15,063 bases of DNA from Alphaproteobacteria bacterium. Its GTDB lineage: Bacteria > Pseudomonadota > Alphaproteobacteria > Rs-D84. Location of the stretch: the NCBI GenBank assembly GCA_017475605.1, contig JAFVFD010000003.1:1-15063 (forward strand), in the 5' to 3' direction. The notes under the pieces are model-generated. The model made no database searches. It had not been told where the DNA came from and saw only the letters and a list, made by a program, of their open reading frames with translations. This document shows, piece after piece, positions 174 to 15,063 of the stretch (the first letter of the stretch is position 1; every line of letters starts with the position of its first letter). The position numbers were made by a program, and so were the translations under genes.

Positions 174-236
174 CACAGGCAATAAATAAAATCAAAAAAA
201 TCTCCGTTTGTCGATTTTTTAAGATTTTCTTAATTG

Positions 237-385: not shown

Positions 386-391
386 GATTCT

Positions 392-467: not shown

Positions 468-510
468 AAAAAACCTGCAATTTTTAGGAAATTTCCCAAA
501 ATGCCGGCAA

Positions 511-539
511 ATTATAACTGCGCTTTGGCGCATTGTCAA
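511..539 (-). promoter_or_regulatory. Consensus sigma70-type promoter for tRNA-Glu
   Basis: The minus strand reads TTGACA (534..539), a 17-nt spacer, then TATAAT (511..516). It lies about 40 nt upstream of the tRNA 5' end. Confidence 0.7.
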
Positions 540-543
540 GAAA

Positions 544-1500
544 CTATTTTCTTTTTTGCACCATTTGAAACACGAATTTTCCAATTGCGCTTTGTCGGAT
601 GTTCGCAATTTGTGCCGACATGCGCACGTTTTCATTGTTCAAATCGGTGTTTTCTTGTTTTAAGCGTTTGTTTTCGCGTTCCAATTCGGCAACACGTTTC
701 GCCATTTCGCGATTAGATTCGACCAATTCGATGTTTCTGTCGTCCATTGTGTCCAATTCATAGGACATTTGGTCATAATGTTTTTTGCGTGATTTTTCGT
801 GCTTTATTGTGTGTGCCATATCAACTAATGCGTGGAAACGCATTATGTCGCGGTACATGTGTAATGGATAAATTGGTACGTTATTGTTGGACAGTTTTTC
901 GCGAACCTTGGCTACCTGGGTCATGGTGATTTCGCCGTTAAACCATTCAATTTCCGGTGTGCCAATCAAATCCGCCGTCAGGTTCAGGCAATTATCTATT
1001 TCCTTTATCATGCGGTTCAGACGGGCGACATTTTTACAATCTTTCTTGTTCTTTTTCTTGAATTGGCGGTATTCGTTGCACAATTTATCGTATGCGAAAA
1101 TGATATCTGTTTGGAAAACCCAATTCATCTGCCCAACGCAAGTTCCCAGTTCAGAATATGTTTGTTCATATTCGCTGATGGCATTGCGAATTTTGATGGA
1201 TGCAAACGGCGAAAACGGTGCCAGGGTGCTGCCACCGTCCTGGATGTGTAAGTCAGCAGCCATACCAACAGCGGAAATAAGTTTGTTTTGTGGATAAATG
1301 TGTTTGTGTTCAAGGCTTTCTATGCCGCACATGTCTAATGACTTTTGAAAGCTTTCGTATGATGTTTGACGACCGGTATAACGGAGAATTTCAACAATCG
1401 CATCAACTGTGTCATTATATGTCTTTATCAAACGATCCATATCCTGCTGGGAAAAAGATTCCGGGCTGTCAACGTTTCCAGAATATTCAATTGTTGCCAT
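544..1500 (-). CDS. Hypothetical protein, 318 aa, C-terminal coiled-coil; no family recognised
   Basis: Longest ORF in the region, with AAGGA about 11 nt upstream of the ATG and its own promoter. The C-terminal 60 aa (REMAKRVAELERENKRLKQENTDLNNENVRM...) look heptad-like. I saw no catalytic motif. Confidence 0.65.
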   Translation of the reverse strand: MATIEYSGNVDSPESFSQQDMDRLIKTYNDTVDAIVEILRYTGRQTSYESFQKSLDMCGIESLEHKHIYPQNKLISAVGMAADLHIQDGGSTLAPFSPFASIKIRNAISEYEQTYSELGTCVGQMNWVFQTDIIFAYDKLCNEYRQFKKKNKKDCKNVARLNRMIKEIDNCLNLTADLIGTPEIEWFNGEITMTQVAKVREKLSNNNVPIYPLHMYRDIMRFHALVDMAHTIKHEKSRKKHYDQMSYELDTMDDRNIELVESNREMAKRVAELERENKRLKQENTDLNNENVRMSAQIANIRQSAIGKFVFQMVQKRK

Positions 1501-1526
1501 TTATTACATTCCTTTTGTTTTTTATA

Positions 1527-1554
1527 ATAGTAATACAAAAAATATAATTGTCAA
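1527..1554 (-). promoter_or_regulatory. Candidate promoter for the 318-aa ORF
   Basis: The minus strand reads TTGACA (1549..1554), a 16-nt spacer, then TACTAT (1527..1532). It sits between the tRNA-Asp terminator and the ATG at 1500. Confidence 0.5.
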
Positions 1555-1567
1555 TATGTTTGTTGAA

Positions 1568-1590
1568 ATAAAAAACCGCCAATTCGGCGG
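1568..1590 (-). terminator. Hairpin terminator after tRNA-Asp
   Basis: The stem ccgcc/ggcgg (1576..1580 with 1586..1590) has a 5-nt loop and is followed on the minus strand by a T-run (complement of the A-run 1568..1575). The stem is short, so confidence is moderate. Confidence 0.5.
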
Positions 1591-1598
1591 AAAATAAC

Positions 1599-1676
1599 TG
1601 GCGGGATGTAAGGGGCTCGAACCCTCGACCTTCTGCGTGACAGGCAGACGCTCTAAACCAGCTGAGCTAACACCCC
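1599..1676 (-). tRNA. tRNA-Asp: tRNA-Asp (anticodon GUC), CCA encoded
   Basis: The reverse complement reads GGGGUGU UA GCUC AGCUGGUUUA GAGC G UCUGC CUGUCAC GCAGA AGGUC GAGGG UUCGAGC CCCUU ACAUCCC G CCA. The cloverleaf has one G-U pair in the acceptor stem and one in the T stem. Confidence 0.92.
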
Positions 1677-1689
1677 GCAAAGCCCACAT

Positions 1690-1718
1690 ATCTTATACCG
1701 ACAAAGATGTAATTGCAA
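1690..1718 (-). promoter_or_regulatory. Candidate promoter for tRNA-Asp
   Basis: The minus strand reads TTGCAA (1713..1718), a 17-nt spacer, then TAAGAT (1690..1695). It lies about 14 nt upstream of the tRNA 5' end. Confidence 0.6.
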
Positions 1719-1744
1719 GTGTTTTTTTGTATTTTATATAAATA

Positions 1745-1772
1745 TTGACAATGTTGTGTTTTGTACTATATT
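1745..1772 (+). promoter_or_regulatory. Candidate promoter for the 167-aa ORF
   Basis: TTGACA (1745..1750), a 16-nt spacer, then TATATT (1767..1772). An AAAAGGGA Shine-Dalgarno-like element follows, with the ATG at 1804. Confidence 0.6.
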
Positions 1773-1803
1773 ATAATAAGTAAAGCAACCGAAAAGGGAC
1801 AAA

Positions 1804-2307
1804 ATGAAAAATATATTTGGAACAATCTTTAAGAAGAACACAGTTAAACCGGTACAATCGGCTGAAAAGCCTGTTTCTAAAATACCAGCAAAACCAAAGT
1901 ATGATTTTGTTGAACAATATACAGTTATTGATCCGAAAAAGATTTTAAACGGTGGTTATGAATTGTGGCAAATGTGTGAAAATGTCCCGGTGGCATGCGA
2001 AGAAGAAGGTGTGCCAACAACAGGGTTCATACGATACAAAATGTTGCCGACAAAAATCGTGATGGGTTTTCTGTGCGAATTACAGAAAAAAACATCGGAA
2101 GAAATCGAAGATCCGAAAATGCGTACTTTGTCCATTGTACATGTTTCCCAAAACCATCGCATTGTAATAGGACCTAATTTTGAATCGCCAAAATCACCTG
2201 TGTTTTGGGTGGTCGCCGACGATGTGCCCAAGAAAGATTGGATATTACATGTAACGCCGGAAAAGAACCGCGCGATTGTCGATGCGTTAAAAATACATAC
2301 GCGATAA
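1804..2307 (+). CDS. Hypothetical protein, 167 aa, no family recognised
   Basis: The ORF has a promoter, a Shine-Dalgarno-like element and a strong terminator immediately downstream. The N-terminus is lysine/proline-rich. No motif was recognised. Confidence 0.65.
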   Translation: MKNIFGTIFKKNTVKPVQSAEKPVSKIPAKPKYDFVEQYTVIDPKKILNGGYELWQMCENVPVACEEEGVPTTGFIRYKMLPTKIVMGFLCELQKKTSEEIEDPKMRTLSIVHVSQNHRIVIGPNFESPKSPVFWVVADDVPKKDWILHVTPEKNRAIVDALKIHTR

Positions 2308-2312
2308 AAAAT

Positions 2313-2336
2313 AAAAACCCGCATTTGCGGGTTTTT
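2313..2336. terminator. Bidirectional hairpin terminator between convergent genes
   Basis: aaaaacccgcatttgcgggttttt: a 5-bp GC stem (2318..2322 with 2327..2331) extended by A5/T5 arms. It serves both the 167-aa ORF and gap. Confidence 0.8.
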
Positions 2337-2340
2337 ATTT

Positions 2341-3342
2341 TTACTTGATAAGTTTTCCAATTGCCATTGCGGTATCGCACATGCGGTTTGAAAAGCCCCA
2401 TTCGTTATCATACCATGCGGTTACATGAACTAACTTATCTGCCAATACTTTTGTTTGTCCGGCATCAAAAATGGAACTGTGCGCATCATCTGTAAAGTCA
2501 ATCGAAACCAATGGTTTATCATTATAGCCAAATGTTTTAGATTCGGCCGCACGCATCGCATCGTTGACCGCTTCGACAGTTGCAGATTTTTCCAAATTCG
2601 CGACCAGTTCAACAACCGATACATCGGGGGTCGGAACGCGAATTGCCATGCCATCCATTTTTCCAGCCAGATTTGGTAAAACCAGACCAATAGCCTTGGC
2701 CGCACCGGTGGATGTCGGAATCATGGACATCGCCGCCGCGCGCGCACGACGGAAATCTTTGTGGTTTTTATCCAACAATTGCTGATCGCCGGTGTATGCG
2801 TGAACCGTTGTCATCCAGGCAGATACAATGCCGAACTTTTCGTCCAGCACCTTGGCCACCGGTGCCAAACAATTTGTTGTGCATGATGCGTTGGAAACAA
2901 TTAAATCGTCCGCGGTCAATGTATCTTCGTTAACACCGAAAACAATTGTTTTGTCCGCCCCCGCAGATGGTGCCGAAACCAAAACACGTTTCGCGCCCGC
3001 ATCAAGATGAACACGTGCCTTGTCCGCGGCGGTGAACAAACCTGTGCATTCCATAACGACATCAATTTTTAAATCTTTCCAAGGCAATTTAGACGGGTCG
3101 CGTTCGGAAATGCACTTGATTTTCTGATTGCCGACGATTATGTATTCACCGTCCAATTTAACATCCATTGGCAGTTTCCCATGTACAGAATCATATTCCA
3201 ACAAATATGCATTCTGTTCAGCCGGTGCCAAATCATTTACCGCAACAAATTCAATGTCATCGCGACCTGATACCAATGCCGCACGCAAAATAAGACGACC
3301 AATACGACCGAATCCGTTGATTGCTACTCTTAATTTAGACAT
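2341..3342 (-). CDS. gap: Type I glyceraldehyde-3-phosphate dehydrogenase
   Basis: N-terminal Rossmann motif VAINGFGRIGR and active-site SNASCTTNCLAP. The 333-aa length is typical, and WYDNEWGFSNRM lies near the C-terminus. AGGAAG Shine-Dalgarno element upstream. Confidence 0.96.
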   Translation of the reverse strand: MSKLRVAINGFGRIGRLILRAALVSGRDDIEFVAVNDLAPAEQNAYLLEYDSVHGKLPMDVKLDGEYIIVGNQKIKCISERDPSKLPWKDLKIDVVMECTGLFTAADKARVHLDAGAKRVLVSAPSAGADKTIVFGVNEDTLTADDLIVSNASCTTNCLAPVAKVLDEKFGIVSAWMTTVHAYTGDQQLLDKNHKDFRRARAAAMSMIPTSTGAAKAIGLVLPNLAGKMDGMAIRVPTPDVSVVELVANLEKSATVEAVNDAMRAAESKTFGYNDKPLVSIDFTDDAHSSIFDAGQTKVLADKLVHVTAWYDNEWGFSNRMCDTAMAIGKLIK

Positions 3343-3412
3343 ATTTCTTCCTTTCGTTTAATGTTATTGCTACACAAGGCTAATTCTAGCACTTTAATTT
3401 CACAGAATACAA

Positions 3413-3441
3413 TTGAATTTTGTCCGTTGCCATTTTATAAT
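3413..3441 (+). promoter_or_regulatory. Near-consensus promoter directly abutting the miaA start
   Basis: TTGAAT (3413..3418), a 17-nt spacer, then TATAAT (3436..3441). The miaA ATG at 3451 is only 9 nt downstream of the -10 element. Confidence 0.6.
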
Positions 3442-3450
3442 ATTGTCAAT

Positions 3451-4305
3451 ATGAAATACGATGCGTATATTATTACAGGTCCAACCGCGTCGGGCAAATC
3501 ATCTTTTGCCCATAATCTTGCACGCGAAATTGGCGGTACTATTATCAATGCCGACAGTGTACAAATATATCGCGGAATTGAAAATATATCTGCTTCGCCA
3601 TTTGCATCGCGCGAAATTACGCCAGAAATAGATGGGGTGCCGTATCGCCTTTTTTCAATTTTACCACTGACCCAGCAAATAAGTGTTGCGGAATATCTTG
3701 ATATGGCGCGGGCTGAATATGATGCGGCGCGCGGGGCTGGGCGGGTGCCGATTTTTGTTGGCGGGACGGGATACTATATAAATGCGTTGATACATGGTAT
3801 GTCGCCAATGCCGGAAATAGATGCAGATGTTCGGGCCAAGGCGCGTGATGTGGTGGCATCTGATATAGCGGCGGCACGCGCGATGTTGCCGGCCGATTTT
3901 ACCGCGACCGACCCACAACGCGTTGCCCGCGCATTAGAGGTTTTTTTACAAACAGGCATACATATAACCGAATATCAAAACGCGGCGCGTGTTGGTGCCG
4001 TTGTGCCAAATGCGCATCGAATACTTATTAATCCGCCGGCGGATGTGCTGCGGGCGCGTATTGCGGCGCGTATACCGGAAATGCTGTCGGGTGGCGCGTT
4101 GGCCGAGGCGCACGCGGTTATTGATTCCGGCTGGGACGAAACGCGGGCAATTGGTGCGGCGCAATTATGTGCCTATATTCGTGGCGAAATATCAATGGAT
4201 GTGGCCATCCAAAATTGGATTACCAAAACTAACCAATATGCCAAGCGGCAACGTACATGGTTTCGTACGCAATTTGACGCAGATGAAATCATTACAAAAA
4301 TCTGA
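3451..4305 (+). CDS. miaA: tRNA dimethylallyltransferase (tRNA delta2-isopentenylpyrophosphate transferase)
   Basis: MKYDAYIITGPTASGKS P-loop at the N-terminus, followed by DSVQIYRG and VGGTGYY, then C-terminal KRQRTWFR. The start was moved from the track's 3361 to the internal ATG at 3451, because MiaA proteins begin just before the P-loop. Confidence 0.92.
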   Translation: MKYDAYIITGPTASGKSSFAHNLAREIGGTIINADSVQIYRGIENISASPFASREITPEIDGVPYRLFSILPLTQQISVAEYLDMARAEYDAARGAGRVPIFVGGTGYYINALIHGMSPMPEIDADVRAKARDVVASDIAAARAMLPADFTATDPQRVARALEVFLQTGIHITEYQNAARVGAVVPNAHRILINPPADVLRARIAARIPEMLSGGALAEAHAVIDSGWDETRAIGAAQLCAYIRGEISMDVAIQNWITKTNQYAKRQRTWFRTQFDADEIITKI

Positions 4306-4350
4306 TTTTAATATATTGAATTTTATAAAAAAACCAGGTATTTTACATGT

Positions 4351-6558
4351 ATGTTTAAATCTGGTGATGTTGTAAAAGTTTTATTGCCAAATGTCGTCAA
4401 TACTGGATACGACTATCGCCTTAATGCGCCGGCGGATTTAGGTTCTTTTGTTGAATGTCGTGTTATGAATCGCCCCTATATTGGCGTTGTGTGGGGACTG
4501 CCGGATTCCGGTTTGCCGGCGGATAAAATCAAAAGCGTTGTACGCGTGTTGGATGCGCATATGTCTGTTGCTGATTTACAATGGATAAAGCGTATGTCCG
4601 ATTGGACCCTGATGACACCAGGGGCGGTATTAAAACTTATCATAAATATACCAGATGCTTTTTCGCCACCGCGTGTGGAACAATTGTATTCGTTTGATTT
4701 TGATGCGAAAATAAAAATGACCGCACCGCGCCAGGCGGTTGCCGATGCGTTTGCATCAAATGATAATGATGCGATGTCGGCAAATGATATTGTCAATATT
4801 GCGCATGTGTCGCCAGCGGTCGTGCGAACGATGATTAAAAATGAAATACTGCACCCAGCAGACGTGCGCACAGTGGAAAATGAAAACAGATTCATATATC
4901 AATATCACGATATGGGAACGGTCGTGTTAAATGATGAACAATCTGTCGCCGCGACCCAGATAGCCGATGCGATTGCGCATGGCGGTTTTTCTGTTTTTCT
5001 GTTGGATGGAATTACGGGGTCCGGCAAGACCCAGGTTTATTTTGATGCCGCGTTGCGTGCGTATAATGCGGGTAAATCGGTTTTGCTGATGATGCCGGAA
5101 ATTGCGTTGACCGCACAATTTATGTCGCGGTTTGAATCGCGATTTGGTGCCCCGCCCGTTGTATGGCACAGTAATTTAACCGCGGCGCGTCGGCGTGAAA
5201 TATGGCGTGGGGTGTGTCGGGGTGAAATACGGGTCGTTGTCGGTACACGAAGTGCGCTGTTTTTACCATGGCAAAACCTGGGGTTGATAGTCGTTGATGA
5301 AGAACACGATACTTCGTACAAGCAGGAAGATATGGGAAATTATCATGCGCGTGATATGGCAATTTTGCGTGCATCTATTGCCGGGTTCCCGGTTGTTTTG
5401 GCCAGTGCGACACCTGCGGCGGAAACACTGGAAAATGTTGCAACGGGAAAATATCGTGGACTTAAATTAACATCGCGATTTGGTGGGGCTACATTACCAA
5501 AAATAGAAACGATTGATTTACGGGCCAATCGCCCAGAATCATATAAAGCATCAACTGATGAAAATGCACAGGAAATTGCGGGCGCATTGTCCGCACCACT
5601 TTGTGATGCGATACGCGATACATTAAATAATCATCAACAGATAATGTTGTTTATAAATCGGCGCGGGTTTGCACCAATTGTGCAGTGTAAAAAATGTGGG
5701 TGGACGGCAACCTGTCCTGATTGCAGTGTTGGTATGACCTATCACAAACGCATTGGAAAATTGTTGTGTCATATGTGTGGGCGCACCGAACCATTACCGG
5801 ACAAGTGTGCGAATTGTGGTGGCGATGTTTCTATGCGTGGAACAGGTATTGAACGGGTCCAAGAAGAAGTTTTGGCGCGTTTCCCAAATGCGCGTACTGC
5901 AATCGTATCCAGTGATACAATCGCATCGCGGCAAAGCCTGGAACGCATTGTTGCGAAAATGGAATCGGGTGAAATAGATATTGTTATCGGAACACAGATT
6001 CTTGCCAAAGGGCACCATTTTCCGAATCTGACACTGGTTGGTGTGGTGGATGCAGATATGGGGTTGTTTGGGACCGACTTTCGTGCCGCGGAACATACAT
6101 TTCAGCAATTGTTCCAGGTCGCCGGTCGTGCCGGTCGTGGTGCGATACCGGGACGCGTTTTATTACAAACCTATCAACCCGACCACCCGGTGTTAAATGC
6201 CATCTGTGCGGGCAATCGTGATGAGTTTATGGAAACGGATATGGCGGGGCGGCGCATGGCAAAAATGCCACCTTTTGGGCAATTGATTGCGGTCGTTGTC
6301 GAGGGTGCGCGTGAAAATATTTTACAAAAATACTGTACCGATTTGGCGGCGGCCGCACCAAATATAAATGGAGGGCGCATAATGGGACCGGTGCCGGCGC
6401 AAATATATCAGATTCGAAATTGGTACCGGATGCGGTTTTTGGTTTCGGGCGATGTGCGCGCAAAATTACAGCCGATTGTCGCGAATTGGTTGGCGCGTGT
6501 GAAACAACCCGCAAATATTCGCGTTAAAATCGATGTGAACCCAGTTAATTTTATGTAA
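4351..6558 (+). CDS. priA: Primosomal protein N' (replication restart helicase PriA)
   Basis: Walker A GITGSGKT and DEEH box VVDEEHD. The cysteine-rich zinc region is CKKCGWTATCPDC...CHMCG...CANCGG. 735 aa. Confidence 0.95.
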   Translation: MFKSGDVVKVLLPNVVNTGYDYRLNAPADLGSFVECRVMNRPYIGVVWGLPDSGLPADKIKSVVRVLDAHMSVADLQWIKRMSDWTLMTPGAVLKLIINIPDAFSPPRVEQLYSFDFDAKIKMTAPRQAVADAFASNDNDAMSANDIVNIAHVSPAVVRTMIKNEILHPADVRTVENENRFIYQYHDMGTVVLNDEQSVAATQIADAIAHGGFSVFLLDGITGSGKTQVYFDAALRAYNAGKSVLLMMPEIALTAQFMSRFESRFGAPPVVWHSNLTAARRREIWRGVCRGEIRVVVGTRSALFLPWQNLGLIVVDEEHDTSYKQEDMGNYHARDMAILRASIAGFPVVLASATPAAETLENVATGKYRGLKLTSRFGGATLPKIETIDLRANRPESYKASTDENAQEIAGALSAPLCDAIRDTLNNHQQIMLFINRRGFAPIVQCKKCGWTATCPDCSVGMTYHKRIGKLLCHMCGRTEPLPDKCANCGGDVSMRGTGIERVQEEVLARFPNARTAIVSSDTIASRQSLERIVAKMESGEIDIVIGTQILAKGHHFPNLTLVGVVDADMGLFGTDFRAAEHTFQQLFQVAGRAGRGAIPGRVLLQTYQPDHPVLNAICAGNRDEFMETDMAGRRMAKMPPFGQLIAVVVEGARENILQKYCTDLAAAAPNINGGRIMGPVPAQIYQIRNWYRMRFLVSGDVRAKLQPIVANWLARVKQPANIRVKIDVNPVNFM

Positions 6559-6562
6559 TAAG

Positions 6563-6584
6563 AAAGGCGCAAATTGCGCCTTTT
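6563..6584. terminator. Bidirectional hairpin terminator after priA and the convergent small ORF
   Basis: aaaggcgcaaattgcgcctttt: a 6-bp stem (6566..6571 with 6575..6580) with A and T flanks. Confidence 0.75.
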
Positions 6585-6585
6585 G

Positions 6586-6870
6586 TTATCTTGCGTGGCA
6601 GAATACTTTATTCCACAGTGCGCGCCATCTGGCAGACCTTTCGGCGCGTTTGCGGGCGCGTTCCGCAAAGTATTCTTCTAGATTAGATTTTTCTGAATAT
6701 TGCGCATTTGATTCCGAGGCGTGCGGGTGGTTCTTTTCCCATACGGTTGACATATATTGATTAAATTCGTTGCGACGTTTGTTGTTTACGTTGCCCATTT
6801 CATCAATTAGTCCCAATCGCATCATTTCAGCATCGGAACCATCATACTTTATTTCGTGTTCTTTCATCAT
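6586..6870 (-). CDS. Hypothetical small charged protein, 94 aa, co-oriented 20 nt downstream of the VirB11-like ATPase
   Basis: The ORF fills the gap between the ATPase stop and the terminator. The C-terminus is basic (ERARKRAERSARWRALW). No family was recognised and the Shine-Dalgarno element is weak. Confidence 0.5.
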   Translation of the reverse strand: MMKEHEIKYDGSDAEMMRLGLIDEMGNVNNKRRNEFNQYMSTVWEKNHPHASESNAQYSEKSNLEEYFAERARKRAERSARWRALWNKVFCHAR

Positions 6871-6890
6871 TGCTTTTCCATTCTTTTTGT

Positions 6891-7868
6891 TTATATAACC
6901 TCGGTTACGGCACGCAGGGCCCCATCGCGCGATAATTGGACAACACGAATTTTTTTGCGCATTTCAGCCATCAATTGTGCGCGGTCATATGCGGGCTGGG
7001 TGTGTAAAATGCGGTCTGCAAATGCAGCATATGCGGCATCGGCACTTTCCGCGTGAATTGTTGTATAGAAATGGTCGTGCCCCGTCCCCAGCATTTCCCA
7101 CAGCACCGACGCATTGTCCGTTGATATTTCGCCACCGATAATAACATCGGGTGTCATACGCACCACCAGGTCCAGCAGGCGTGCATAATTAAAATCATTT
7201 GTTTGTTCGGTACGCGACAGGACAAAATGTACACGATTATCCTGGGGGACACGAATTTCACGTGCATCTTCGACCGTAATGACACGACTGTTTTGGTCAA
7301 TAAGGGTCAGCATATGATTCAAAAAGGTTGTTTTACCAGTTGCCGTTGCACCACTTATTAAAATAGGGCTGCCATCATTTATGGCGGACATTAAACGGTC
7401 GTATGGATCGTCGGGACGAACGGTTTGACGCGGTTTAACACGTAATAATTTTTTCCCGCGTTCAAGGTGGTAATTTTCAAAACTGGTATCCGGTGCGCCG
7501 CCGCCGCGAATACTCATGGCGACACCGCCGGTTATATCGCGTTCGTCAAATTGTACATTCGGTCCCGCGATTGCCGAAAAACGATGATTACCCGGAAGTG
7601 TCGCATAAACAACCGGCATGCCATGTATCGGGTCAAATGGACGTTCGTATATGTTCGCGACCGTATGTATTAAATCAACCAGGTATTGTTTCGACAACTG
7701 TGGCGCATCATACGCAACCCATGGAACGCGCGCACCATGCAGGCGCATCCAAACCTGGCCTGCGTGATTTATGGCGATTTCTTCGACGAATTCGGGTTTA
7801 TAAAACTCGGCCAAAGGTTCCAATAAAGAATCAAGTACTACATTTGACATTTGTTTTAATTTTATCAT
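6891..7868 (-). CDS. virB11: VirB11-family (type II/IV secretion system) hexameric ATPase
   Basis: N-terminal EEIAINHAGQVWM. Walker A GATATGKT is at 7329..7352 (checked at the nucleotide level). Walker B-like region VITVEDAREI and His-box GTGHDHFYTTIHA. The 325-aa length fits VirB11 rather than CpaF or PilB. Confidence 0.82.
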   Translation of the reverse strand: MIKLKQMSNVVLDSLLEPLAEFYKPEFVEEIAINHAGQVWMRLHGARVPWVAYDAPQLSKQYLVDLIHTVANIYERPFDPIHGMPVVYATLPGNHRFSAIAGPNVQFDERDITGGVAMSIRGGGAPDTSFENYHLERGKKLLRVKPRQTVRPDDPYDRLMSAINDGSPILISGATATGKTTFLNHMLTLIDQNSRVITVEDAREIRVPQDNRVHFVLSRTEQTNDFNYARLLDLVVRMTPDVIIGGEISTDNASVLWEMLGTGHDHFYTTIHAESADAAYAAFADRILHTQPAYDRAQLMAEMRKKIRVVQLSRDGALRAVTEVI

Positions 7869-7878
7869 AAATCGACCC

Positions 7879-7907
7879 TTGAATCAAAATGCTTTATTTG
7901 GTAAAAT
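7879..7907 (+). promoter_or_regulatory. Candidate promoter for the 186-aa lipoprotein gene
   Basis: TTGAAT (7879..7884), a 17-nt spacer, then TAAAAT (7902..7907). A purine-rich Shine-Dalgarno region follows, with the ATG at 7929. Confidence 0.6.
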
Positions 7908-7928
7908 AGAAAAAAAGAGAGAAAGAAA

Positions 7929-8489
7929 ATGAAAAAATCTTGGATTGCTGTAATTTGTGCTGTATTGGCGTTGGGCGCGTGTTCAACGGGCGATACACCG
8001 TATAATACCGATGATTTTGAACATGGTGGTGCCGATGCCCCGTTGTACAACGAACGGACCAGCCAATTTATGCAGGCGGAAAATCAATATTCCAATATTG
8101 ATTCCTATAAACCCAAAACCGCCAAGGAAAAAGAATTAAGCGATAATAAATGGAAAACATCGCGTATGGAAACCCATTGGCAAGAATACAAGGGGACAAT
8201 GGTTCGTGTACAAATCTTGCTGGGGAACAGTGATGTTCGTGAAATGCGCCTGCGCCTGATGCAAAATGCCGACGGTATGGATATTGACGGCGATGCACGT
8301 ACCATTTTGGCCAAGGTCGCAGACTATGAAATGAAACGCGTTTGTGGCCGTAACACCGACAGTATTGTTATGATTTATGACAAACCGTCATTTGATGTTA
8401 TGCGCCCAACACCGTATTATGATTATCGGATGGAGGCCGAAGGGTCCACCATGCGCGAATACGGGTTCCGTTGCGTTTATAACAATTAA
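7929..8489 (+). CDS. Putative lipoprotein, 186 aa, function unknown
   Basis: Signal peptide [18 protein letters not shown] with the lipobox L-G-A-C. A strong terminator lies downstream. Confidence 0.78.
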
Positions 8490-8493
8490 AAAG

Positions 8494-8517
8494 ACCGGCA
8501 AAATGCCGGTTTTTTTT
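8494..8517 (+). terminator. Rho-independent terminator
   Basis: accggcaaaatgccggt: a 7-bp stem followed by a T8 run. Confidence 0.82.
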
Positions 8518-8519
8518 AC

Positions 8520-8549
8520 TTGCATTTTGTGCCCCAGATTTAATATATT
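8520..8549 (+). promoter_or_regulatory. Candidate promoter for the FKBP lipoprotein gene
   Basis: TTGCAT (8520..8525), an 18-nt spacer, then TATATT (8544..8549). AAAGGGGA Shine-Dalgarno element, with the ATG at 8579. Confidence 0.5.
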
Positions 8550-8578
8550 TGTGTTGGACAAAACAAAAGGGGACAATC

Positions 8579-8908
8579 ATGAAAAAAATTATGTCTGTAT
8601 TGGGCATTTGCGGTGTTGCTTTCTTGGCGGCATGCGACAGTAATGCTGGTGCGAAAAACGGTGATACAGTTGTTATCGATTTCGCGGGTTATCTTGATGG
8701 CGAACAATTCGAAGGGGGTACGGCATCTGGTTTCCCATTGACATTGGGCAGCGGTCAATTCGTTCCAGGATTTGAAGAACAAATCGTTGGTATGAAGGTT
8801 GGTGAAACAAAAGACATCAACATCACATTCCCAGAACAGTATGTTGAAAACTTGGCCGGCAAGGCGGTTGTGTTCAAAGTAACTGTTAACGAAATCAAAA
8901 AGAATTAA
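8579..8908 (+). CDS. FKBP-type peptidyl-prolyl cis-trans isomerase lipoprotein (trigger-factor-like PPIase domain)
   Basis: Start chosen at the internal ATG at 8579, which follows the Shine-Dalgarno element. Signal peptide [19 protein letters not shown] has the lipobox L-A-A-C. The mature part ([49 protein letters not shown]...) parallels the E. coli trigger factor PPIase domain as I recall it. Confidence 0.85.
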
Positions 8909-8922
8909 TCTTTTTAATCTTG

Positions 8923-8955
8923 AAAAAAACGCCGCCCGTTTGGGCGGTGTTTTTT
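8923..8955. terminator. Bidirectional hairpin terminator between the FKBP gene and lpxI
   Basis: aaaaaaacgccgcccgtttgggcggtgtttttt: an 8-bp stem (one G-U pair) with A7 and T6 flanks. Confidence 0.82.
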
Positions 8956-8968
8956 ATTTTGCTTTTGT

Positions 8969-9802
8969 TTATTCATCAATCGCGGTGATAAAGATTTTTA
9001 ATTTATTCGCTTCTTTTATCACATTTTCGCGGTCAACAACAAAACATGTTTTTGTGTTAACAATAATTCCACGCAGGTGTGCGGCCGCGACGGCGCGCAC
9101 CGTATCAACACCAATGGCGGGAATGTCAATGCGTAAATCTTGGCCTGGTTTGGTCATTTTGGCAAAAACACCACTGGCGCGTTTTTTGTTTTTGCGCATT
9201 TCAACAACGCGTTCCAGCATACGTGCGGTACCCTCGGCTGCTTCGACTGCGATAACCTGCTTGTCAACAACAACAGATGCGCCAATGTCCGCCGCACCAA
9301 TAGTGTGCGATACATCAATTGCGCGTTCTATATCCGCCATATCTGATTTTGTTGGTTTGGTTTTCGTCTGAATACCCGCCGATTCAAATGTTAATTCCGG
9401 GGCCAAATCCTGGGCCGCCAAGATATTAAATCCACGCTTTTCTAAAATCTTGTTTAGTGTAACCGCCATAGAATCATACCCCCGTTGATGTTTCATAATG
9501 CTTAATAACACCGACAGCGACCATAAATCTGGTCGTATGTCGTAAAGGTTTGGGTGCCCAATCGCACCGACAAATACCAGGTTGCGAATGCCACGCCTGC
9601 GAAATTCACGCACCGCACGACCCGCACCCCCAAGTCGCACCACAATATCCGGATTCAATTTCGGATCAACAAAGTTTTTAAGTCCAACAACATACACGTC
9701 CCAGCCCGCACGACGCAGCGCATCGCGGGTAAAAAATGGTAACTGTAATGCGCCGGCTATCAAAGCAATCTTGTTATCGGCGCGCGTGTTCAATCGTTTC
9801 AT
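8969..9802 (-). CDS. lpxI: UDP-2,3-diacylglucosamine pyrophosphatase LpxI (DUF1009 family)
   Basis: The N-terminal IALIAGALQLP and the block DIERAIDVSHTIGAADIGASVVVDKQVIAVEAAEGTARMLERV...KPGQDLRIDIPAIGVDTV closely parallel Caulobacter LpxI as I recall it. 277 aa. Confidence 0.85.
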   Translation of the reverse strand: MKRLNTRADNKIALIAGALQLPFFTRDALRRAGWDVYVVGLKNFVDPKLNPDIVVRLGGAGRAVREFRRRGIRNLVFVGAIGHPNLYDIRPDLWSLSVLLSIMKHQRGYDSMAVTLNKILEKRGFNILAAQDLAPELTFESAGIQTKTKPTKSDMADIERAIDVSHTIGAADIGASVVVDKQVIAVEAAEGTARMLERVVEMRKNKKRASGVFAKMTKPGQDLRIDIPAIGVDTVRAVAAAHLRGIIVNTKTCFVVDRENVIKEANKLKIFITAIDE

Positions 9803-9840
9803 AATATCTAAGGGTACGCATAAATCGCGCTGGAATCAAG

Positions 9841-9868
9841 TTGCAATTTATGATAATATTTATATAAA
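9841..9868 (+). promoter_or_regulatory. Candidate promoter for the tandem outer membrane protein genes
   Basis: TTGCAA (9841..9846), a 16-nt spacer, then TATAAA (9863..9868). Confidence 0.45.
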
Positions 9869-9890
9869 GTGAAAATTGGGTGTAACGCAT

Positions 9891-10655
9891 ATGAAAAAAA
9901 TATCTTGTTTAGTTGTTGCGATGTTGGTGGCAATGCCTGCATACGCAAAATACAGCGACCGTCAATTCCGTTCGGAAATCGCACGTGGTGTTGACATTAT
10001 TGGTGCGGAATCAAATGTTAATGTGATACCGGACGATGCACCGGGCGCATTGGGACGTGATGTGTACCAGAAAGTCGGTGTTGTCGATAATTCTGATATA
10101 ACAATGTTCATTCCAACAACAATGTATGTGCGCGCGGGTGGGGGATTTAACCTGCCGTTTGCGACGGACTATGCCGGGTTTGGTGGCGAAAAACATTCGT
10201 CCAGTGGTTCTTATACCGCGCAAATAGGTTTGGGGTGGAATCTGTCATCGTATGTGCGGACTGAAATTGATGCGCAGACATCTACATTTACTTTTTCACA
10301 CCTGGATAATCGCCAGGCAAATTATCAAACATTGGGCGCGATGTTATATTTTGATTTTGCCCGTCGATATGTTCAAACGGGTGATGTTACGCGCATGCGC
10401 CATTTTGTGCCATTTATGGGTGTGGGTGCCGGGTTTGGACACTATGAATTCGAAGGGGCCGATGGTTCAAATGGATTTGTTATTGCCGCACCACGCGCAA
10501 CATTGGGCTTTAATATAATGCTGACCGATTTGATTGGTATTGATATTGCGTATCAATATCAGATGATGATTGGTAACGGATTCGGTTGGGGTGTGCGCCA
10601 TGGCGGTGTTGATAATATCAGCAACGTTATTGCGTCTTTTCGTGTGAATTTCTGA
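9891..10655 (+). CDS. Outer membrane beta-barrel (porin-family) protein, paralog 1
   Basis: Start set at the ATG at 9891, giving signal peptide MKKISCLVVAMLVAMPAYA. Alternating aromatic and glycine-rich beta-strand pattern. The C-terminal SFRVNF ends in Phe, as is typical of beta-barrel outer membrane proteins. Confidence 0.8.
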   Translation: MKKISCLVVAMLVAMPAYAKYSDRQFRSEIARGVDIIGAESNVNVIPDDAPGALGRDVYQKVGVVDNSDITMFIPTTMYVRAGGGFNLPFATDYAGFGGEKHSSSGSYTAQIGLGWNLSSYVRTEIDAQTSTFTFSHLDNRQANYQTLGAMLYFDFARRYVQTGDVTRMRHFVPFMGVGAGFGHYEFEGADGSNGFVIAAPRATLGFNIMLTDLIGIDIAYQYQMMIGNGFGWGVRHGGVDNISNVIASFRVNF

Positions 10656-10668
10656 TGGGGTGAATGAT

Positions 10669-11319
10669 ATGAAAATAAAATTATTAATTGGTGCATTGTG
10701 TTTAATCGCAACATCCGCGAACGCGGCGATTCCATACCGCGTACGCCAGGTGGTAACCCCGCCGGCCGAAATCCCAGATGGTAACGATGACGAGGCCTTT
10801 GCCCGTATCCACCGTTTTTATGTTGGTGGTATGTATGATTTTTCAATGTGGCAATCATATACAGACAAAAACGATGTGCGCGTTAGCGGTAAAAACACAT
10901 CTTCGTTTGATATTGTCGCTGGTATTCGTATTTATGATACTTTCCGGTTGGAAGCAAACTATGCCCGCACAATCGCAAAGTTCGATGATATTAAATTGGA
11001 AGGCAACACCGTTTTCGCAAATGCTATATTTGATGCGCGTATTGACAGTATGTATCGCCTTTTCCGGTCGCAAAGCCTGGTGCCGTATGTCGGTGCCGGT
11101 GTCGGTTTAAGTGGGAACAAAGTCGATGGCGCAAAAATTGATGACAAAATAAGTCCGGCGGTCGCGGTTATGGCGGGCCTGGGAATTGAACTGGGCGAAT
11201 ATTTCACAATTGATGCGGGTTATCGCTATATGTATATGTTTTCGCCAAAGTTTGATGCGATTGAAGGTCTGAACCCAACGGCGCATCAATTCCGCGTTGG
11301 CGCACGTGTGAACTTTTAA
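10669..11319 (+). CDS. Outer membrane beta-barrel (porin-family) protein, paralog 2
   Basis: Start set at the ATG at 10669, giving signal peptide MKIKLLIGALCLIATSANA. It ends GARVNF and shares VP(F/Y)(M/V)G.G.G and Y.Y blocks with paralog 1. Confidence 0.8.
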   Translation: MKIKLLIGALCLIATSANAAIPYRVRQVVTPPAEIPDGNDDEAFARIHRFYVGGMYDFSMWQSYTDKNDVRVSGKNTSSFDIVAGIRIYDTFRLEANYARTIAKFDDIKLEGNTVFANAIFDARIDSMYRLFRSQSLVPYVGAGVGLSGNKVDGAKIDDKISPAVAVMAGLGIELGEYFTIDAGYRYMYMFSPKFDAIEGLNPTAHQFRVGARVNF

Positions 11320-11325
11320 TCGAAT

Positions 11326-12249
11326 ATGAAAAAGTGTCCGTTCTTTGGTATATGTGGTGGGTGTAAATATGATTTTACATCGGCGGACTATCATAATCAA
11401 AAATTGGCGGCATTACCTGATTTGCCGATAACCGATGATGCGCGGTGGCTGGATGCGGGGGCGCGCCGTCGTGGCGATTTCTGTTTTGCGCCGAACGAAT
11501 TTGGGCTGTTCGAATCGCGGTCTAAAAATATAGTGCCGGTGCGCAATTGTCCGAATATGGTACCGGAAATTAACGATATTTTACCGCGTGTTGCGGCATT
11601 ACCATGGGGGGCATCGGGTTCGTGCCTTATCACATCATGCGAAAATGGAATCGATATTGTGGTTAATTCCGATGTGCCGTATTTTACCCCCGAATTTAAA
11701 ACTGCGGCGGAAAAAACAGGTGCGATTCGCGTTGTGTGGAACGATAAAATCGTGTTTCAATCTGAAAAGCCAATAATTAAATTTGATGATGTTGCGGTGG
11801 AATACCCAGCAAACGCGTTTTTACAACCAGGCAAGCCAGGCGAGTCCGCATTGCGCGAAATGGTCGTTTCCGCGGTGGCGGGCGCAAAACGCGTGGCAGA
11901 TTTGTTCTGTGGCCTGGGCAGTTTTACATTTGCAACACATGCCGATGGCTTTGATATTGTTGGCACCGGTGTAAAGCGCGATTTGTTTACGCATCCGCTT
12001 ACGGTTGGAATGTTGAACGGGTATGATTGTGTAATAATGGACCCACCGCGTGCGGGTGCGATGGCCCAGTGTCGTGAATTGATTAAAAGTAATGTCGGGC
12101 GTGTGATTTATGTTTCGTGTAACCCGGAAACATTCCGTCGCGATATGAATATTCTGGTGCGTGGGGGGTATAAATTGCGTGAACTGGTCCCCGTTGATCA
12201 ATTTGTGGGCAGTGCCCACTGGGAACTTTTTTCCGTATTTGAAAAATAA
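11326..12249 (+). CDS. Class I SAM-dependent RNA (uracil-5) methyltransferase, RumA/TrmA family, short form without a TRAM domain
   Basis: N-terminal CPFFGICGGCKYDF plus a later VRNCP gives four Cys, as in the RumA Fe-S cluster. Other motifs are DLFCGLGSFT (SAM motif I), DPPRAG (motif IV) and YVSCNPETFRRD. Confidence 0.85.
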   Translation: MKKCPFFGICGGCKYDFTSADYHNQKLAALPDLPITDDARWLDAGARRRGDFCFAPNEFGLFESRSKNIVPVRNCPNMVPEINDILPRVAALPWGASGSCLITSCENGIDIVVNSDVPYFTPEFKTAAEKTGAIRVVWNDKIVFQSEKPIIKFDDVAVEYPANAFLQPGKPGESALREMVVSAVAGAKRVADLFCGLGSFTFATHADGFDIVGTGVKRDLFTHPLTVGMLNGYDCVIMDPPRAGAMAQCRELIKSNVGRVIYVSCNPETFRRDMNILVRGGYKLRELVPVDQFVGSAHWELFSVFEK

Positions 12250-12255
12250 AAGCAA

Positions 12256-12280
12256 ACCGCCAGAAATGGCGGTCTGTTTT
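12256..12280. terminator. Bidirectional hairpin terminator between the RNA methyltransferase gene and the DUF262-HNH gene
   Basis: accgccagaaatggcggt: a 7-bp stem followed by ctgtttt. The stop codon of the minus-strand DUF262-HNH gene (12279..12281) lies in the T-tract. Confidence 0.75.
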
Positions 12281-13478
12281 AATCATCGCTTTTCTTGCGG
12301 TTGTGGTGGCGACATAACATTTGGCAATTTTCTGGAACTGTTTTTCCGCCCTGGGACCATGGAATAATATGGTCGCCATCCATTTCTTCAAATTTCCATA
12401 CTTTGTTTTCGTTTTCTGTGTTTTCACAATACGGACAAATGCCACCTTGTTTTTGATATATTGTGCGTTTCGTTGCGTTGTCGAATTGGCGCAGGTTCAG
12501 GTGTTTTTTATCATTATCAAAAACAAATTCAAATATACCGCGCTTGTTTTGTATTTCTTCGTCTGCCATTAAACCGGCAACAGCACGTCGCATAACCGAT
12601 GTATCATATTTTCTGTAACCATATTTGTTATACAATGTTCCCCATGGCAAACCACGCATTTCGTTATAGTATGTTTCACCAAACACATCGTGGACCCAAT
12701 CAACAACCGATTTATAATAGTTTATCAGTTCATCTGCGGTTTCATCCGCGCGATGAATTGACATATAATTTTTTATTTCCGGGTATTGTGTTGGGTTTGT
12801 TTCAATTATCCACCCCAGTACAAGGTTTAACAATGCCTGGCGATTGGCGGCTTCGCTGTTTATTGCGATAATGCTGTGCTTTCTGTCATTGTCAAAATAG
12901 CGATAGTTTAATGCGGGGTTGTTGTCCTTTTTGGAAAAGAACGCCTTGGCGGATGTAAGCCATGTGCCAGTATAGTCCGCATTTAACAATTCCTGTTCGG
13001 TCATTTGTTCGCCGGCAATATTAATTGTGTGGAACCATTCTAGTTTTTCGTCTTCGTTCCCATCGCAAACATATACCTGTAATTTATATTCGTCCAAGAT
13101 TTGTTTTTGTTTGTCCGGGGATAATTGTGTAAATGTCTGGGTGCGCCGACCGTCAAAGTTTATCGCAATAGGGTTGCCGTATCCGTCATCGTTTGTAATA
13201 AATTGACAGATAGATATTGTCCGTTGTTGGCCATCAATAATTTCAAATGTGCCATCGGGGTTTTTTGACCAATACATAACATTTAACGGTAAATCGTCAT
13301 AAACCGATTTCATAACCATGTCGCGTTTGTCGGGGGTATAGATAAATTCGCGCTGAAACGCGGGGCGGACATTAAGTTTACCGCCAAACGCAACAACACC
13401 ATTGTCGCCGGAGTCGCGATAGCCATCGACCAATTGCCGAATGGTAAGTGTATCAAGTAATTTTGCCTTCATAACCAT
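12279..13478 (-). CDS. DUF262 (ParB-like, GmrSD N-terminal type) domain fused to a C-terminal HNH zinc-finger nuclease
   Basis: RPAFQREFIY and IIDGQQRT are DUF262 hallmarks; DGQQR is at 13221..13235, checked at the nucleotide level. The C-terminal CPYC...DGDHIIPWSQGG...ENCQMLCRHHN (12300..12437) is a CxxC / DH / N / CxxC-HH HNH motif. AAGGA lies 8 nt upstream of the ATG, inside the preceding gene. Confidence 0.88.
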   Translation of the reverse strand: MVMKAKLLDTLTIRQLVDGYRDSGDNGVVAFGGKLNVRPAFQREFIYTPDKRDMVMKSVYDDLPLNVMYWSKNPDGTFEIIDGQQRTISICQFITNDDGYGNPIAINFDGRRTQTFTQLSPDKQKQILDEYKLQVYVCDGNEDEKLEWFHTINIAGEQMTEQELLNADYTGTWLTSAKAFFSKKDNNPALNYRYFDNDRKHSIIAINSEAANRQALLNLVLGWIIETNPTQYPEIKNYMSIHRADETADELINYYKSVVDWVHDVFGETYYNEMRGLPWGTLYNKYGYRKYDTSVMRRAVAGLMADEEIQNKRGIFEFVFDNDKKHLNLRQFDNATKRTIYQKQGGICPYCENTENENKVWKFEEMDGDHIIPWSQGGKTVPENCQMLCRHHNRKKSDD

Positions 13479-13479
13479 A

Positions 13480-14541
13480 TTAGTTTCCTTTTTTCTTTTT
13501 GATTAAAATTCGCGCATATGGAACAGTAACTATGTTATCCACCATCATGTATAAATCACCATCAACAGCGCCTCTTTTCTGAATGGTTTTTCTATATAAT
13601 TTATGCTCTGGTTTATATGGTTTAACACCTATTTCAAGACCAGAATTTGATATACCTAAGCCGATTATTTCAAATTGGTCTGGGTTATGTTTGTTCAAAA
13701 ATGTTATTGGTACGCCCATGGCTCCATCATAATCCATTGGTATATCGTCCGTTTTATTGATATTTATTGCATCATAATTTTCATACTTTGGATACATGTG
13801 TTCATAACCGTAGTATTTTTTACCGGTTTCCAAAAATTCTGTACGTTTTGTTGTTGGTAAGTTTGTGAACCAGCAAACCGCCGGTGTTGTTATATAATTA
13901 TCGTCTGGATCATACCCATGGGAACGCACATTTTTACGATTGCTTTCCGAAGTATTTTTATATAATGTCTTGAATATCATTGCCACATTAAAACCATACC
14001 CAACCCACATTTTATTTTCTTTTATTAAGGGAAACACTTCTCTGTATGTTATTGCATTAATATTTCCAATGATTATAAATTTCTTTTTATACTCCATTAA
14101 CTGTGCGACATATTCCCGAAAAAGTGAGAACGGCGGGTTTGTTACGACCAAATCTGCGGTTTTTAGCAGTTTTACACATTCGTCCGAACGAAAATCACCG
14201 TTTGATTTTAAGGGTATTTCCTGGATGTCTTCGCTGCAAATAATGCCGTCGCCGGTGTTGTCTTTATCCAAAATATACATTGTTGATGCGCCATCGCGTT
14301 CATAGTGTGTGGCGATTACGCGTTTGATACCAAATGCCTCGAAATTATCAGCAAAGTATTTAAGAAAGTTTGATTTTGGTGTGCCCAGTCCGATTCCCGC
14401 GTGGTCATCACAATTGCAGTAAATCACCTTGTTCTTGAAATACTTGGCATAATGATTCAGTTCTTTCTCAATTTCGTCGTAGCAGGTGTAAAATTCATCG
14501 TTTTTGTTTTCTTTTGCAAGAAACATTGTATGTTTTGCCAT
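13480..14541 (-). CDS. N6-adenine DNA methyltransferase, EcoRI-methylase-like family
   Basis: Catalytic motif IV VVTNPPFSLF, with NPPF at 14128..14139 (checked at the nucleotide level). The N-terminal NDEFYT...VIYCNCDD block matches what I recall of the adenine-specific methyltransferase EcoRI family. The stop TAA (13480..13482) is 1 nt from the next ATG. Confidence 0.82.
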   Translation of the reverse strand: MAKHTMFLAKENKNDEFYTCYDEIEKELNHYAKYFKNKVIYCNCDDHAGIGLGTPKSNFLKYFADNFEAFGIKRVIATHYERDGASTMYILDKDNTGDGIICSEDIQEIPLKSNGDFRSDECVKLLKTADLVVTNPPFSLFREYVAQLMEYKKKFIIIGNINAITYREVFPLIKENKMWVGYGFNVAMIFKTLYKNTSESNRKNVRSHGYDPDDNYITTPAVCWFTNLPTTKRTEFLETGKKYYGYEHMYPKYENYDAININKTDDIPMDYDGAMGVPITFLNKHNPDQFEIIGLGISNSGLEIGVKPYKPEHKLYRKTIQKRGAVDGDLYMMVDNIVTVPYARILIKKKKGN

Positions 14542-14791
14542 ACCCTAACCCCGATTGTATAAAAATTAAACCGCCAACAGAAATTGACGGTCGGGGAGTT
14601 GATAAAACATACAAAGTGATGCTCCTGTGGGTTTTAAGATATATCTTTGAACATAACCACAGCCCCCCGACCAATAGATCGGGGATGAATACAGTGCAAA
14701 AAGCACCGAAACATCGGATTACGATGCTTTCGCACCGACTTTGTAAAGGCTTATCACGGCCCGAACCCAATTCCCATTGGATTCAATTCAA
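14542..14791 (-). promoter_or_regulatory. Long structured 5' leader of the methyltransferase/nuclease operon
   Basis: No credible ORF. On the minus-strand RNA there are four complementary segments: CCCCGA, UCGGGGGG, CCCCGA and UCGGGG. There is also a 6-bp clamp hairpin (14625..14630 with 14657..14662) around a 12-nt palindrome, and a hairpin plus U5. The last UCGGGG covers the only Shine-Dalgarno-like G-run, 7 nt before the ATG. Confidence 0.45.
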
Positions 14792-14800
14792 ATTATAACA
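14792..14800 (-). promoter_or_regulatory. Extended -10 promoter candidate (TGTTATAAT) for the methyltransferase operon or leader RNA
   Basis: The minus strand reads TG-T-TATAAT (plus strand attataaca at 14792..14800). The TTGATT upstream is only 9 nt away, so it is not a usable -35. The extended -10 would have to suffice alone. Confidence 0.4.
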
Positions 14801-14895
14801 CAGAAAAATCAAAAGGGAATTGTTTTGTTTGGTGTTGCTACCCCGTCTTGCTGCGCTGCGCTTGCAATCCACCCCTTCGCATGGCAAAGGGGAAT

Positions 14896-14922
14896 AAAAA
14901 AACGCCGCCGTTGCCGGCGGTG
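14896..14922 (-). terminator. Strong hairpin terminator, best on the minus strand
   Basis: ccgccg/cggcgg: a 6-bp GC stem (14905..14910 with 14915..14920) with a 4-nt loop, extended by two more pairs. It is followed on the minus strand by T7, but only by TGTTTT on the plus strand. Confidence 0.78.
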
Positions 14923-15045
14923 TTTTCCGAATGCTCTTGAAAGGAAGGAAAGGAGAAAAAGAAATAGAGCATTCTTAACTTTCAGGTGGGGCCCAGAGCT
15001 CAGAGGAGAGAGAATGTAGGAGGGAGTCTGAATCCCTGAACCCCA
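14896..15045 (-). ncRNA. Candidate small RNA rich in C and U (5' end undefined, may start beyond the window)
   Basis: The minus strand carries a 5-bp hairpin (15021..15037), then the CU-rich stretch CUCCCUCCUACAUUCUCUCUCCUCUG. A perfect 9-bp stem (14929..14937 with 14966..14974) follows, enclosing a 28-nt loop AUUUCUUUUUCUCCUUUCCUUCCUUUCA. The terminator comes last. No promoter is visible inside the window. Confidence 0.3.
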
Positions 15046-15063
15046 TATGGTCATCGGGTTTAA

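Follow-up and report, generated by a model that had tools for sequence, protein, structure and literature searches.

What does the structured region ahead of a DNA methylase gene in a small alphaproteobacterial genome control? The stretch analysed here, 15,063 nucleotides from an Alphaproteobacteria bacterium of the lineage Rs-D84 (GenBank assembly GCA_017475605.1, contig JAFVFD010000003.1, positions 1 to 15,063; below, the window), contains on its minus strand a Type II DNA adenine methyltransferase gene preceded by four short segments of the CCCCGA/UCGGGG type. The original prediction, made from the sequence alone, took them for a translational switch that can hide or free the ribosome-binding site of the methylase. 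We argue for a different answer, namely that 14559-14800 (minus strand) comprises a promoter and a structured leader of about 229 nt (14559-14787), which belongs to a large family and acts as a terminator/antiterminator switch before a methylase/nuclease operon; we give this reading a probability of about 0.7. The leader most likely decides between transcription stop and read-through, rather than being a dedicated ribosome-site switch. The observation that drew attention to the locus is confirmed, and its interpretation is partly supported.

The segments, the terminator and the leader family

All four segments and the methylase start codon (ATG at 14541) are located on the minus strand where they had been placed: the cores of segment 1 (CCCCGA, 14679-14684), segment 2 (UCGGGGGG, 14663-14670) and segment 3 (CCCCGA, 14591-14596), as well as segment 4 (UCGGGG, 14549-14554), which is the Shine-Dalgarno run of the methylase gene. 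The window contains nine TCGGGG/CCCCGA sites, against 6.5 +/- 2.4 expected, and four of the nine fall inside 136 nt at this locus, a length for which about 0.06 would be expected. The region 14530-14800 folds with -98.8 kcal/mol, compared with -68.4 +/- 4.6 kcal/mol for shuffled sequences (z = -6.6), and none of 200 shuffles is as good. The hairpin formed by segments 1 and 2 is present, but its initially proposed size (6 bp, 8-nt loop) is too short, as it comprises nine pairs and a 4-nt loop, (U)CCCCGAUC / GGUCGGGG(G).

The statement that the switch sits on a translation initiation region rather than on a terminator overlooked an intrinsic terminator at 14559-14592, identified by a terminator scan (GACCGUCAA-UUUCUG-UUGGCGGUU followed by the U-run UAAUUUUUAU), whose 5' strand overlaps segment 3. 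The terminator ends 17 nt before the methylase start, and the operon, which has too little space for its own promoter, would be expressed via read-through only. At the opposite end of the leader we found an extended -10 promoter box (TGTTATAAT, 14792-14800), from which the RNA start is predicted at about 14786-14789. Such a TGnTAnAAT-like box occurs at a fixed distance 5' of the conserved AUUGAAUCC in four copies of the leader in the genome from which the window derives (0.82 Mb, 94% complete; below, the source genome) and in most of the 24 copies from which we built a covariance model.

In the source genome the covariance model detects four strong and two weak, diverged copies, and a DNA search with 14542-14830 returns three further copies there and also hits 30 of 36 additional genomes from the genus. 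Scanning with the model reveals matches in 144 of 151 genomes of the genus (more than 1,100 in total, with up to 14 scored per genome) and in 137 of 151 genomes sampled from 22 genera across the order Rs-D84, 17 of which are represented; in five genomes of a sister family we found 5-25 diverged copies per genome. The genera g16 and g18 and the families f4 and f5 yielded few matches or none. The four source-genome copies can be aligned from the TGnTAnAAT box to the U-run; outside this range their sequences are unrelated, although an ATG and its ribosome-binding site follow in every case. The two weak copies, C1:380843-381036 (minus strand; L146) and C1:45920-46094 (plus strand; L147), score about 41-43 bits and may be separate subfamilies. 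The closest relatives of the window methylase are found in Candidatus Enterousia, which has been placed in the reduced-genome order Rs-D84 (PMC12306168).

A permissive cmscan search of 14300-15063 against Rfam 15, proposed earlier as a check, gave no match at the gathering threshold (the best overlap is rli40, with 24.9 vs 100 bits), and a search of a plasmid collection yielded short coding-region matches only. In the full-text literature we found papers on Enterousia, none of them on the RNA element, and neither a description of the leader nor a paper that combines 'Rs-D84' and 'riboswitch'. The leader family of Candidatus Enterousia and other Rs-D84 Alphaproteobacteria is apparently undescribed; terminator/antiterminator devices are well known as a type, unlike this family with its size, its fold, its number of copies in genomes of less than 1 Mb and its set of targets.

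Closed fold and competing partners of segment 2

Pairing was evaluated, cell by cell, with a pair counter on a MAFFT alignment of 96 copies. This analysis, a column-pair analysis on 96 copies and RNAalifold on 24 copies all give the same closed fold, composed of hairpin P1, a helix between an additional segment (seg0) and the C-run of segment 3, helices HA and HB, a central domain, hairpin P5 (segments 1 and 2), hairpin P6, and the terminator. In this fold 96.4% of the cells are paired and 613 cells are changed on both sides, compared with 162 +/- 14 in shuffles; none of 500 shuffles equals the observed value on any measure, and if the 3' partner is slid by 1-3 columns, only 35-47% of the cells pair. 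The single-sequence minimum-energy fold of the window leader (-91.6 kcal/mol) is the same as the family fold.

The terminator stem is paired in 97.6% of the cells, with compensatory changes. At least five U residues occur in the 8 nt after the stem in 84 of the 96 copies (six in the window), and the median stability of the hairpin is -12.4 kcal/mol, which is also the value for the window. Segment 3 (CUCCCCGACC, 14589-14598) ends with the four bases GACC, which in the folds and in the alignment form the foot of the terminator stem. Segment 2 (GGUCGGGGGG, 14663-14672; family consensus GGUCGGGGAG) is complementary both to segment 1 (CCCCGAUC, 14677-14684, the 5' strand of P5) and to segment 3, and the 2:3 helix extends over GACC. 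Over its nine pairs the 2:3 helix is 98.6% paired, with both-side changes at six of them, and the 1:2 helix is 94.8% paired. Of the switch topology originally proposed, in which 1:2 and 3:4 alternate with 2:3, the part concerning segment 2 stands, i.e. it has exclusive partners, segment 1 or segment 3, both of which covary with it; the 3:4 helix, however, is not conserved, and the family partner of segment 3 is the 3' strand of the terminator.

Within the genus the segments are too conserved to prove much, and we therefore examined diverged copies. In the weak copies of the source genome segments 1, 2 and 3 have been rewritten together, as CUCCUGCC/GGCAGGAG/CUCCUGCC and as CUCCAAC/GUUGGAG/CUCCAAC, and in one of the two seg0 has changed to UGGAG. 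A set of 31 diverged copies contains 25 distinct sequences of segment 2 and 23 of segment 3. The number of contiguous 2:3 pairs is 8.9 if both segments are taken from the same copy and 7.1 if they are mismatched; the corresponding values for 1:2 are 7.9 and 5.9. Hence the comparison of homologous leaders, suggested together with the four-segment model, did reveal conservation and covariation of segments 1-3, in the 96 copies and in the diverged ones.

From these pairings we infer that termination is regulated. In the default, most stable fold, segments 1 and 2 would be paired, seg0 would lie on the C-run of segment 3, HA and HB would close the molecule, and the terminator would form, so that transcription would stop. 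In the alternative fold, the 2:3 pairing would remove the GACC foot from the terminator stem and thereby allow read-through. The balance would be shifted by an input, presumably a small ligand or an RNA-binding factor. For the window, both in the finished leader and in a nascent chain ending with GACC, the terminator state is favoured over the 2:3 state by 10-13 kcal/mol; hence termination is the predicted default, and read-through would need an input.

Several points weigh against a terminator/antiterminator switch of this kind. The same energy difference makes the 2:3 state dependent on an input, and no candidate sensor was found among the domains searched. The start site, termination and read-through are all predicted. 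P1, P3, P5 and segments 1-3 are highly conserved in the genus, which means that there the evidence for pairing is largely conservation and not covariation. In the diverged set none of 5000 permutations matches the observed 1:2 or 2:3 values, a significance that is overstated, because the leader copies are related to one another in this set and in the set of 96 alike. Finally, the alternatives P2/HA and P7/HB (see below) and those of the central domain allow more than one combination.

The remaining elements of the fold are as follows. P1 (GAAUCCAAU / AUUGGGUUC, 14763-14784) is paired in 97.9% of the cells, with both-side changes at four of its eight pairs. Just 3' of this hairpin lies seg0 (UCGGG, 14760-14764), a fifth G-rich segment that had been overlooked; segment 3 is its partner both in the window's fold of minimum energy and in the family, where the consensus pair 25:195 is represented by GC 61, AU 13 and UA 2. 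HA joins GAUAAG (14750-14755) to UUUAUC (14601-14606), with both-side changes in 45-53 of the 96 copies at three pairs, and HB joins ACAAAGU (14738-14744) to ACUUUGU (14611-14617), with all seven pairs changed on both sides, in up to 55 of the 96 copies. The alignment shows that the 3' strands of HB and HA (14601-14623) overlap an alternative local hairpin P7 (AGCAU/AUGUU); HB thus faces competition from P7, and HA from another local hairpin, P2. The central domain (14692-14737) is built of repeated strands: X1 CGGUGC, a GAAA loop, Y1 GCAUCG, Z CGAUG, X2 CGGUGC, and Y2 GCACUG. Apart from CGAUG, these make up two strand pairs that are nearly the same, CGGUGC..GCAUCG and CGGUGC..GCACYG. For each of the pairings X1:Y1, X2:Y2, X1:Y2 and Y1:X2, standard pairs account for 95% or more at almost all positions, and in one copy from the source genome (C1:265269-265464) all four strands have changed together. 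The domain looks like a second bistable module.

The variable hairpin P6 (14625-14662) has the base CUGUGG/CCACAG, i.e. the "clamp" of 14625-14630 with 14657-14662 that had been recognised earlier and that proves to be the base of a covarying hairpin (e.g. UA 41, CG 40), and it carries at its tip the palindrome AAGAUAUAUCUU (14636-14647). In most copies the tip is of the type GGG..CCC (GC 37, CG 31), and in four copies P6 is missing. The 12-nt palindrome is real and unique in the genome, but the suggestion that it could serve as a protein operator is rejected, as the pairing alone is conserved and the sequence is not. A GNRA loop (mostly GAAA) in P3 accompanies a full P6 (60 of 78 copies) more often than a short one (6 of 14), and none of the four copies that lack P6 has it; this association among related copies hints at a tetraloop-receptor contact.

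In the window copy the first ~25 nt, including the 5' strand of P1, can pair with the last ~30 nt, i.e. the 3' strand of the terminator and the U-run, and with three extra 5' bases this fold is better than the family fold by 0.7 kcal/mol. As a feature of the family the pairing was rejected, as it shows no covariation and one copy with a different terminator keeps the same P1.

Downstream genes and rival explanations

Gene context was analysed for 95 copies with enough downstream DNA. Nearly all of them (94) are followed on the same strand by an open reading frame (ORF) of at least 30 aa that starts within 200 nt of the model end; in 92 it starts within 45 nt, typically at 10-25 nt, and 86 of these 92 have a Shine-Dalgarno-like motif. 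So short a gap between leader and gene leaves no space for a second promoter, and the genes should therefore depend on read-through.

Most copies precede secreted, surface or glycosyltransferase genes, and many of the downstream products start with a signal-peptide-like or lipoprotein-like sequence, as judged by eye. Pfam names only a minority of the products. They include four EcoRI-type methylases, one C5 methylase, one N6/N4 methylase, one Eco57I-type protein, one ResIII helicase, and one GIY-YIG protein, as well as six glycosyltransferases (GT6, GT2, GT8), six Listeria-Bacteroides repeat proteins, ankyrin proteins, outer-membrane barrels, an autotransporter, and a LysR regulator. Genes for DNA modification thus recur among the targets of the leader, but as a minority.

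In the window, the leader is followed by the gene of the EcoRI-family methylase (13480-14541; Pfam PF13651, E 5e-113; PADLOC MTase_II, E 6e-101) and by that of a partner restriction endonuclease with GmrSD_N/DUF262 and HNH domains according to Pfam (12279-13478; PADLOC REase_II, E 9e-101), both on the minus strand. The ATG of the nuclease lies 1 nt past the methylase stop (TAA) and has its own AAGGAAA ribosome-binding site. The same methylase/nuclease pair is also found in Kiritimatiellia, Clostridia, Spirochaetes, Bacteroidaceae, Ruminococcus and others, never with the leader, and seven Enterousia-type methylase loci from other genomes comprise three with the leader and four without it. As other phyla and some Enterousia have the pair but not the leader, the latter is a device of the host lineage placed over some copies of a mobile restriction-modification module, and not a part of the module. 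The module itself, a two-gene Type II system of an EcoRI-family adenine methylase and a GmrSD_N/DUF262-HNH nuclease, is kept as a unit across unrelated gut phyla (loci L118-L140). Since proteins with DUF262 and HNH are more familiar from modification-dependent (Type IV) restriction, their methylase-paired form deserves a look.

The original explanation, a translational switch dedicated to restriction-modification in which the ribosome-binding site would be masked by 3:4 pairing and released by 2:3 pairing, so as to time the methylase and the nuclease, appears unlikely to us, even though the window copy by itself offers a case for it. The minimum-energy fold of the read-through mRNA (-99.3 kcal/mol) holds the CCCCGA:UCGGGG helix around a shortened terminator hairpin, and the Shine-Dalgarno run has a predicted unpaired probability of 0.04 (96% paired), with 55% of the pairing to segment 3. 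However, the terminator lies between segments 3 and 4, forcing its full form costs only 1.3 kcal/mol relative to the 3:4 fold, and the ribosome-binding site is equally occluded without the leader (unpaired 0.06, i.e. 94% paired). UCGGGG is found in two other methylase-linked copies as well, but it precedes the start codon in only about 3.5% of all copies; of the six distinct methylase-linked copies (window, L028, L008, L069=L118, L119, L121) three have it, and the other three (L069=L118, L119, L121) have AGGA or no G-run. Ribosome-binding sites with GGGG are more frequent behind leaders (48%) than in background ORFs (17%), an enrichment that largely follows the general one in strong ribosome-binding sites (47% vs 26%). 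Occlusion of the ribosome-binding site was rejected as a feature of the family: the site is mainly paired with segment 3 in only 5 of 86 copies, and its median accessibility barely changes (0.44 with the leader, 0.51 without). A role dedicated to restriction-modification is further contradicted by the facts that most copies precede other genes and that the methylase/nuclease pair exists without the leader, and the position of the nuclease start together with its own ribosome-binding site already fixes the gene order. In the window copy, the predicted 3:4 helix could possibly provide a local second layer of control, but not the mechanism of the family.

The leaders could also be imagined as an independent family of trans-acting small-RNA genes that have their own promoter and terminator and merely lie upstream of other genes. 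Their promoter-like box, strong terminator and elaborate, conserved fold would agree with such a role, and as the default fold terminates, an RNA of ~225 nt should accumulate. We find this improbable in view of the co-oriented ORFs that start within 45 nt in 92 of 95 copies and would depend on read-through; moreover, segment 2 has remained complementary to the terminator foot, a property for which a plain small RNA would have no need, and Hfq was not found in the 94% complete source genome. The chances are smaller still that we are dealing with a promoter/terminator cassette that spreads passively, or else with a miniature mobile element, devoid of regulatory switching. Such an element would be expected to be multicopy, to precede accessory, probably horizontally acquired genes, and to be present before some orthologous methylase genes and absent before others, all of which is observed, and the ability of the two ends of the window copy to pair would also fit. 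Against it, the copies are bounded by the promoter and the U-run with unrelated flanks (the boundaries were inspected, with no systematic search for repeats or duplications), the orientation of the leader to the gene is fixed, and there is heavy compensatory change in the internal helices and in both alternative pairings, which the complementarity of the ends, seen without covariation, lacks.

A leader peptide of the trp/his type was rejected by inspection of the alignment, which contains no conserved ORF; the only AUG that recurs lies in the P1 loop (14774-14776), and many of the 96 copies lack it, having AGAG or AGGG there instead. Two ORFs within the window leader (46 and 91 aa) have no Pfam match.

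Known systems and the search for a trigger

The terminator/antiterminator switch that we favour resembles terminating riboswitches and attenuators (e.g. the pyr leaders of Bacillus) in having a promoter-proximal structured leader with a terminator just before the gene, and a conserved strand (segment 2) for which two partners compete, one located upstream and the other being the 5' foot of the terminator. It differs from them in the large sensing part (~190 nt), which contains two long-range helices as well as the repeated strands of the central domain, and in the lack of any known aptamer or protein-binding motif or of an Rfam match at the gathering score. With c-di-GMP-I (GEMM) or T-box leaders it shares the occurrence of many copies per genome before diverse genes, including those of surface and secreted proteins, which suggests that one signal controls a regulon; unlike in these classes, there is no sequence or structure match to either and no GGDEF domain in the source genome, and in contrast to T-boxes the targets of the Enterousia leader are not aminoacyl-tRNA or amino-acid genes. 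To our knowledge, DNA methyltransferase or restriction genes are not targets of the c-di-GMP-I or T-box classes.

In having a palindrome and regulatory sequences ahead of restriction-modification genes, the locus is reminiscent of the Type II systems regulated by a C protein and its C-box. The earlier remark that no controller gene is present agrees with our results, as neither a helix-turn-helix nor any other domain resembling a controller was found in those adjacent ORFs that we tested with Pfam; in addition, the palindrome is the unconserved tip of an RNA hairpin and the leader is shared with unrelated genes, and a C-protein operon was rejected on these grounds. With the c-di-AMP (ydaO/kimA) riboswitch RF00379 the leader shares its large size, the repetition of pseudo-symmetric strands and the presence of a terminator, and the source genome does encode one diadenylate cyclase domain; however, the leader does not match the RF00379 model, and the presence of the cyclase does not track the leader across the order.

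Among the domains that could point to a trigger, GGDEF, RelA/SpoT, CsrA and Hfq were not found in the source genome, at its completeness of 94%, and NusG is present there as a single copy without a paralogue. A search for ANTAR domains gave no match in the source genome, but none in the control genomes either. Sensing of c-di-GMP and (p)ppGpp was rejected in the absence of GGDEF and RelA/SpoT domains from the source genome. The diadenylate cyclase (DAC) domain gene, of which this alphaproteobacterium has one (C1:173544-173894, minus strand), is worth mentioning in its own right. A DAC domain occurs in 72 of 107 genomes of the genus. In one sister family (f3) it is found in 0 of 19 genomes, and the leader in 15 of 19; in one other genus (g16) it is found in all four genomes, and the leader in one of the four. 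Sensing of c-di-AMP was rejected on the basis of this distribution and of the missing match to RF00379.

A tentative idea, less likely to be right than wrong, is that the leader represents an orphan riboswitch class with a large pseudoknotted aptamer for a small molecule, perhaps derived from the host or from a partner cell, and that one terminator switch co-regulates secreted and surface proteins, glycosyltransferases, and methyltransferase/restriction genes. If true, it would put restriction-modification under metabolite control. The Rs-D84 gut Alphaproteobacteria that carry the leader are probably partner-dependent. Should the switch prove real, a single RNA design would gate a considerable fraction of the accessory genes (those for surface and secreted proteins, for enzymes that modify sugars, and for DNA defence) across an order of uncultured gut bacteria with tiny genomes, in which few classical regulators were seen among the genomes searched. 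The window would then illustrate how a Type II system can come to be governed by a host-wide RNA switch in place of a controller protein. The identity of the trigger would reveal what these organisms sense, and the family would add a large orphan RNA class to the catalogue of riboswitches and attenuators.

Upstream of the leader promoter, between it and the preceding minus-strand ORF, there is a strong two-way terminator hairpin at 14895-14926 (CGCCGCCG..CGGCGGCG, flanked by an A-run and a T-run), to which the weak Rfam matches to ylbH, rnk and other leaders in this region are due.

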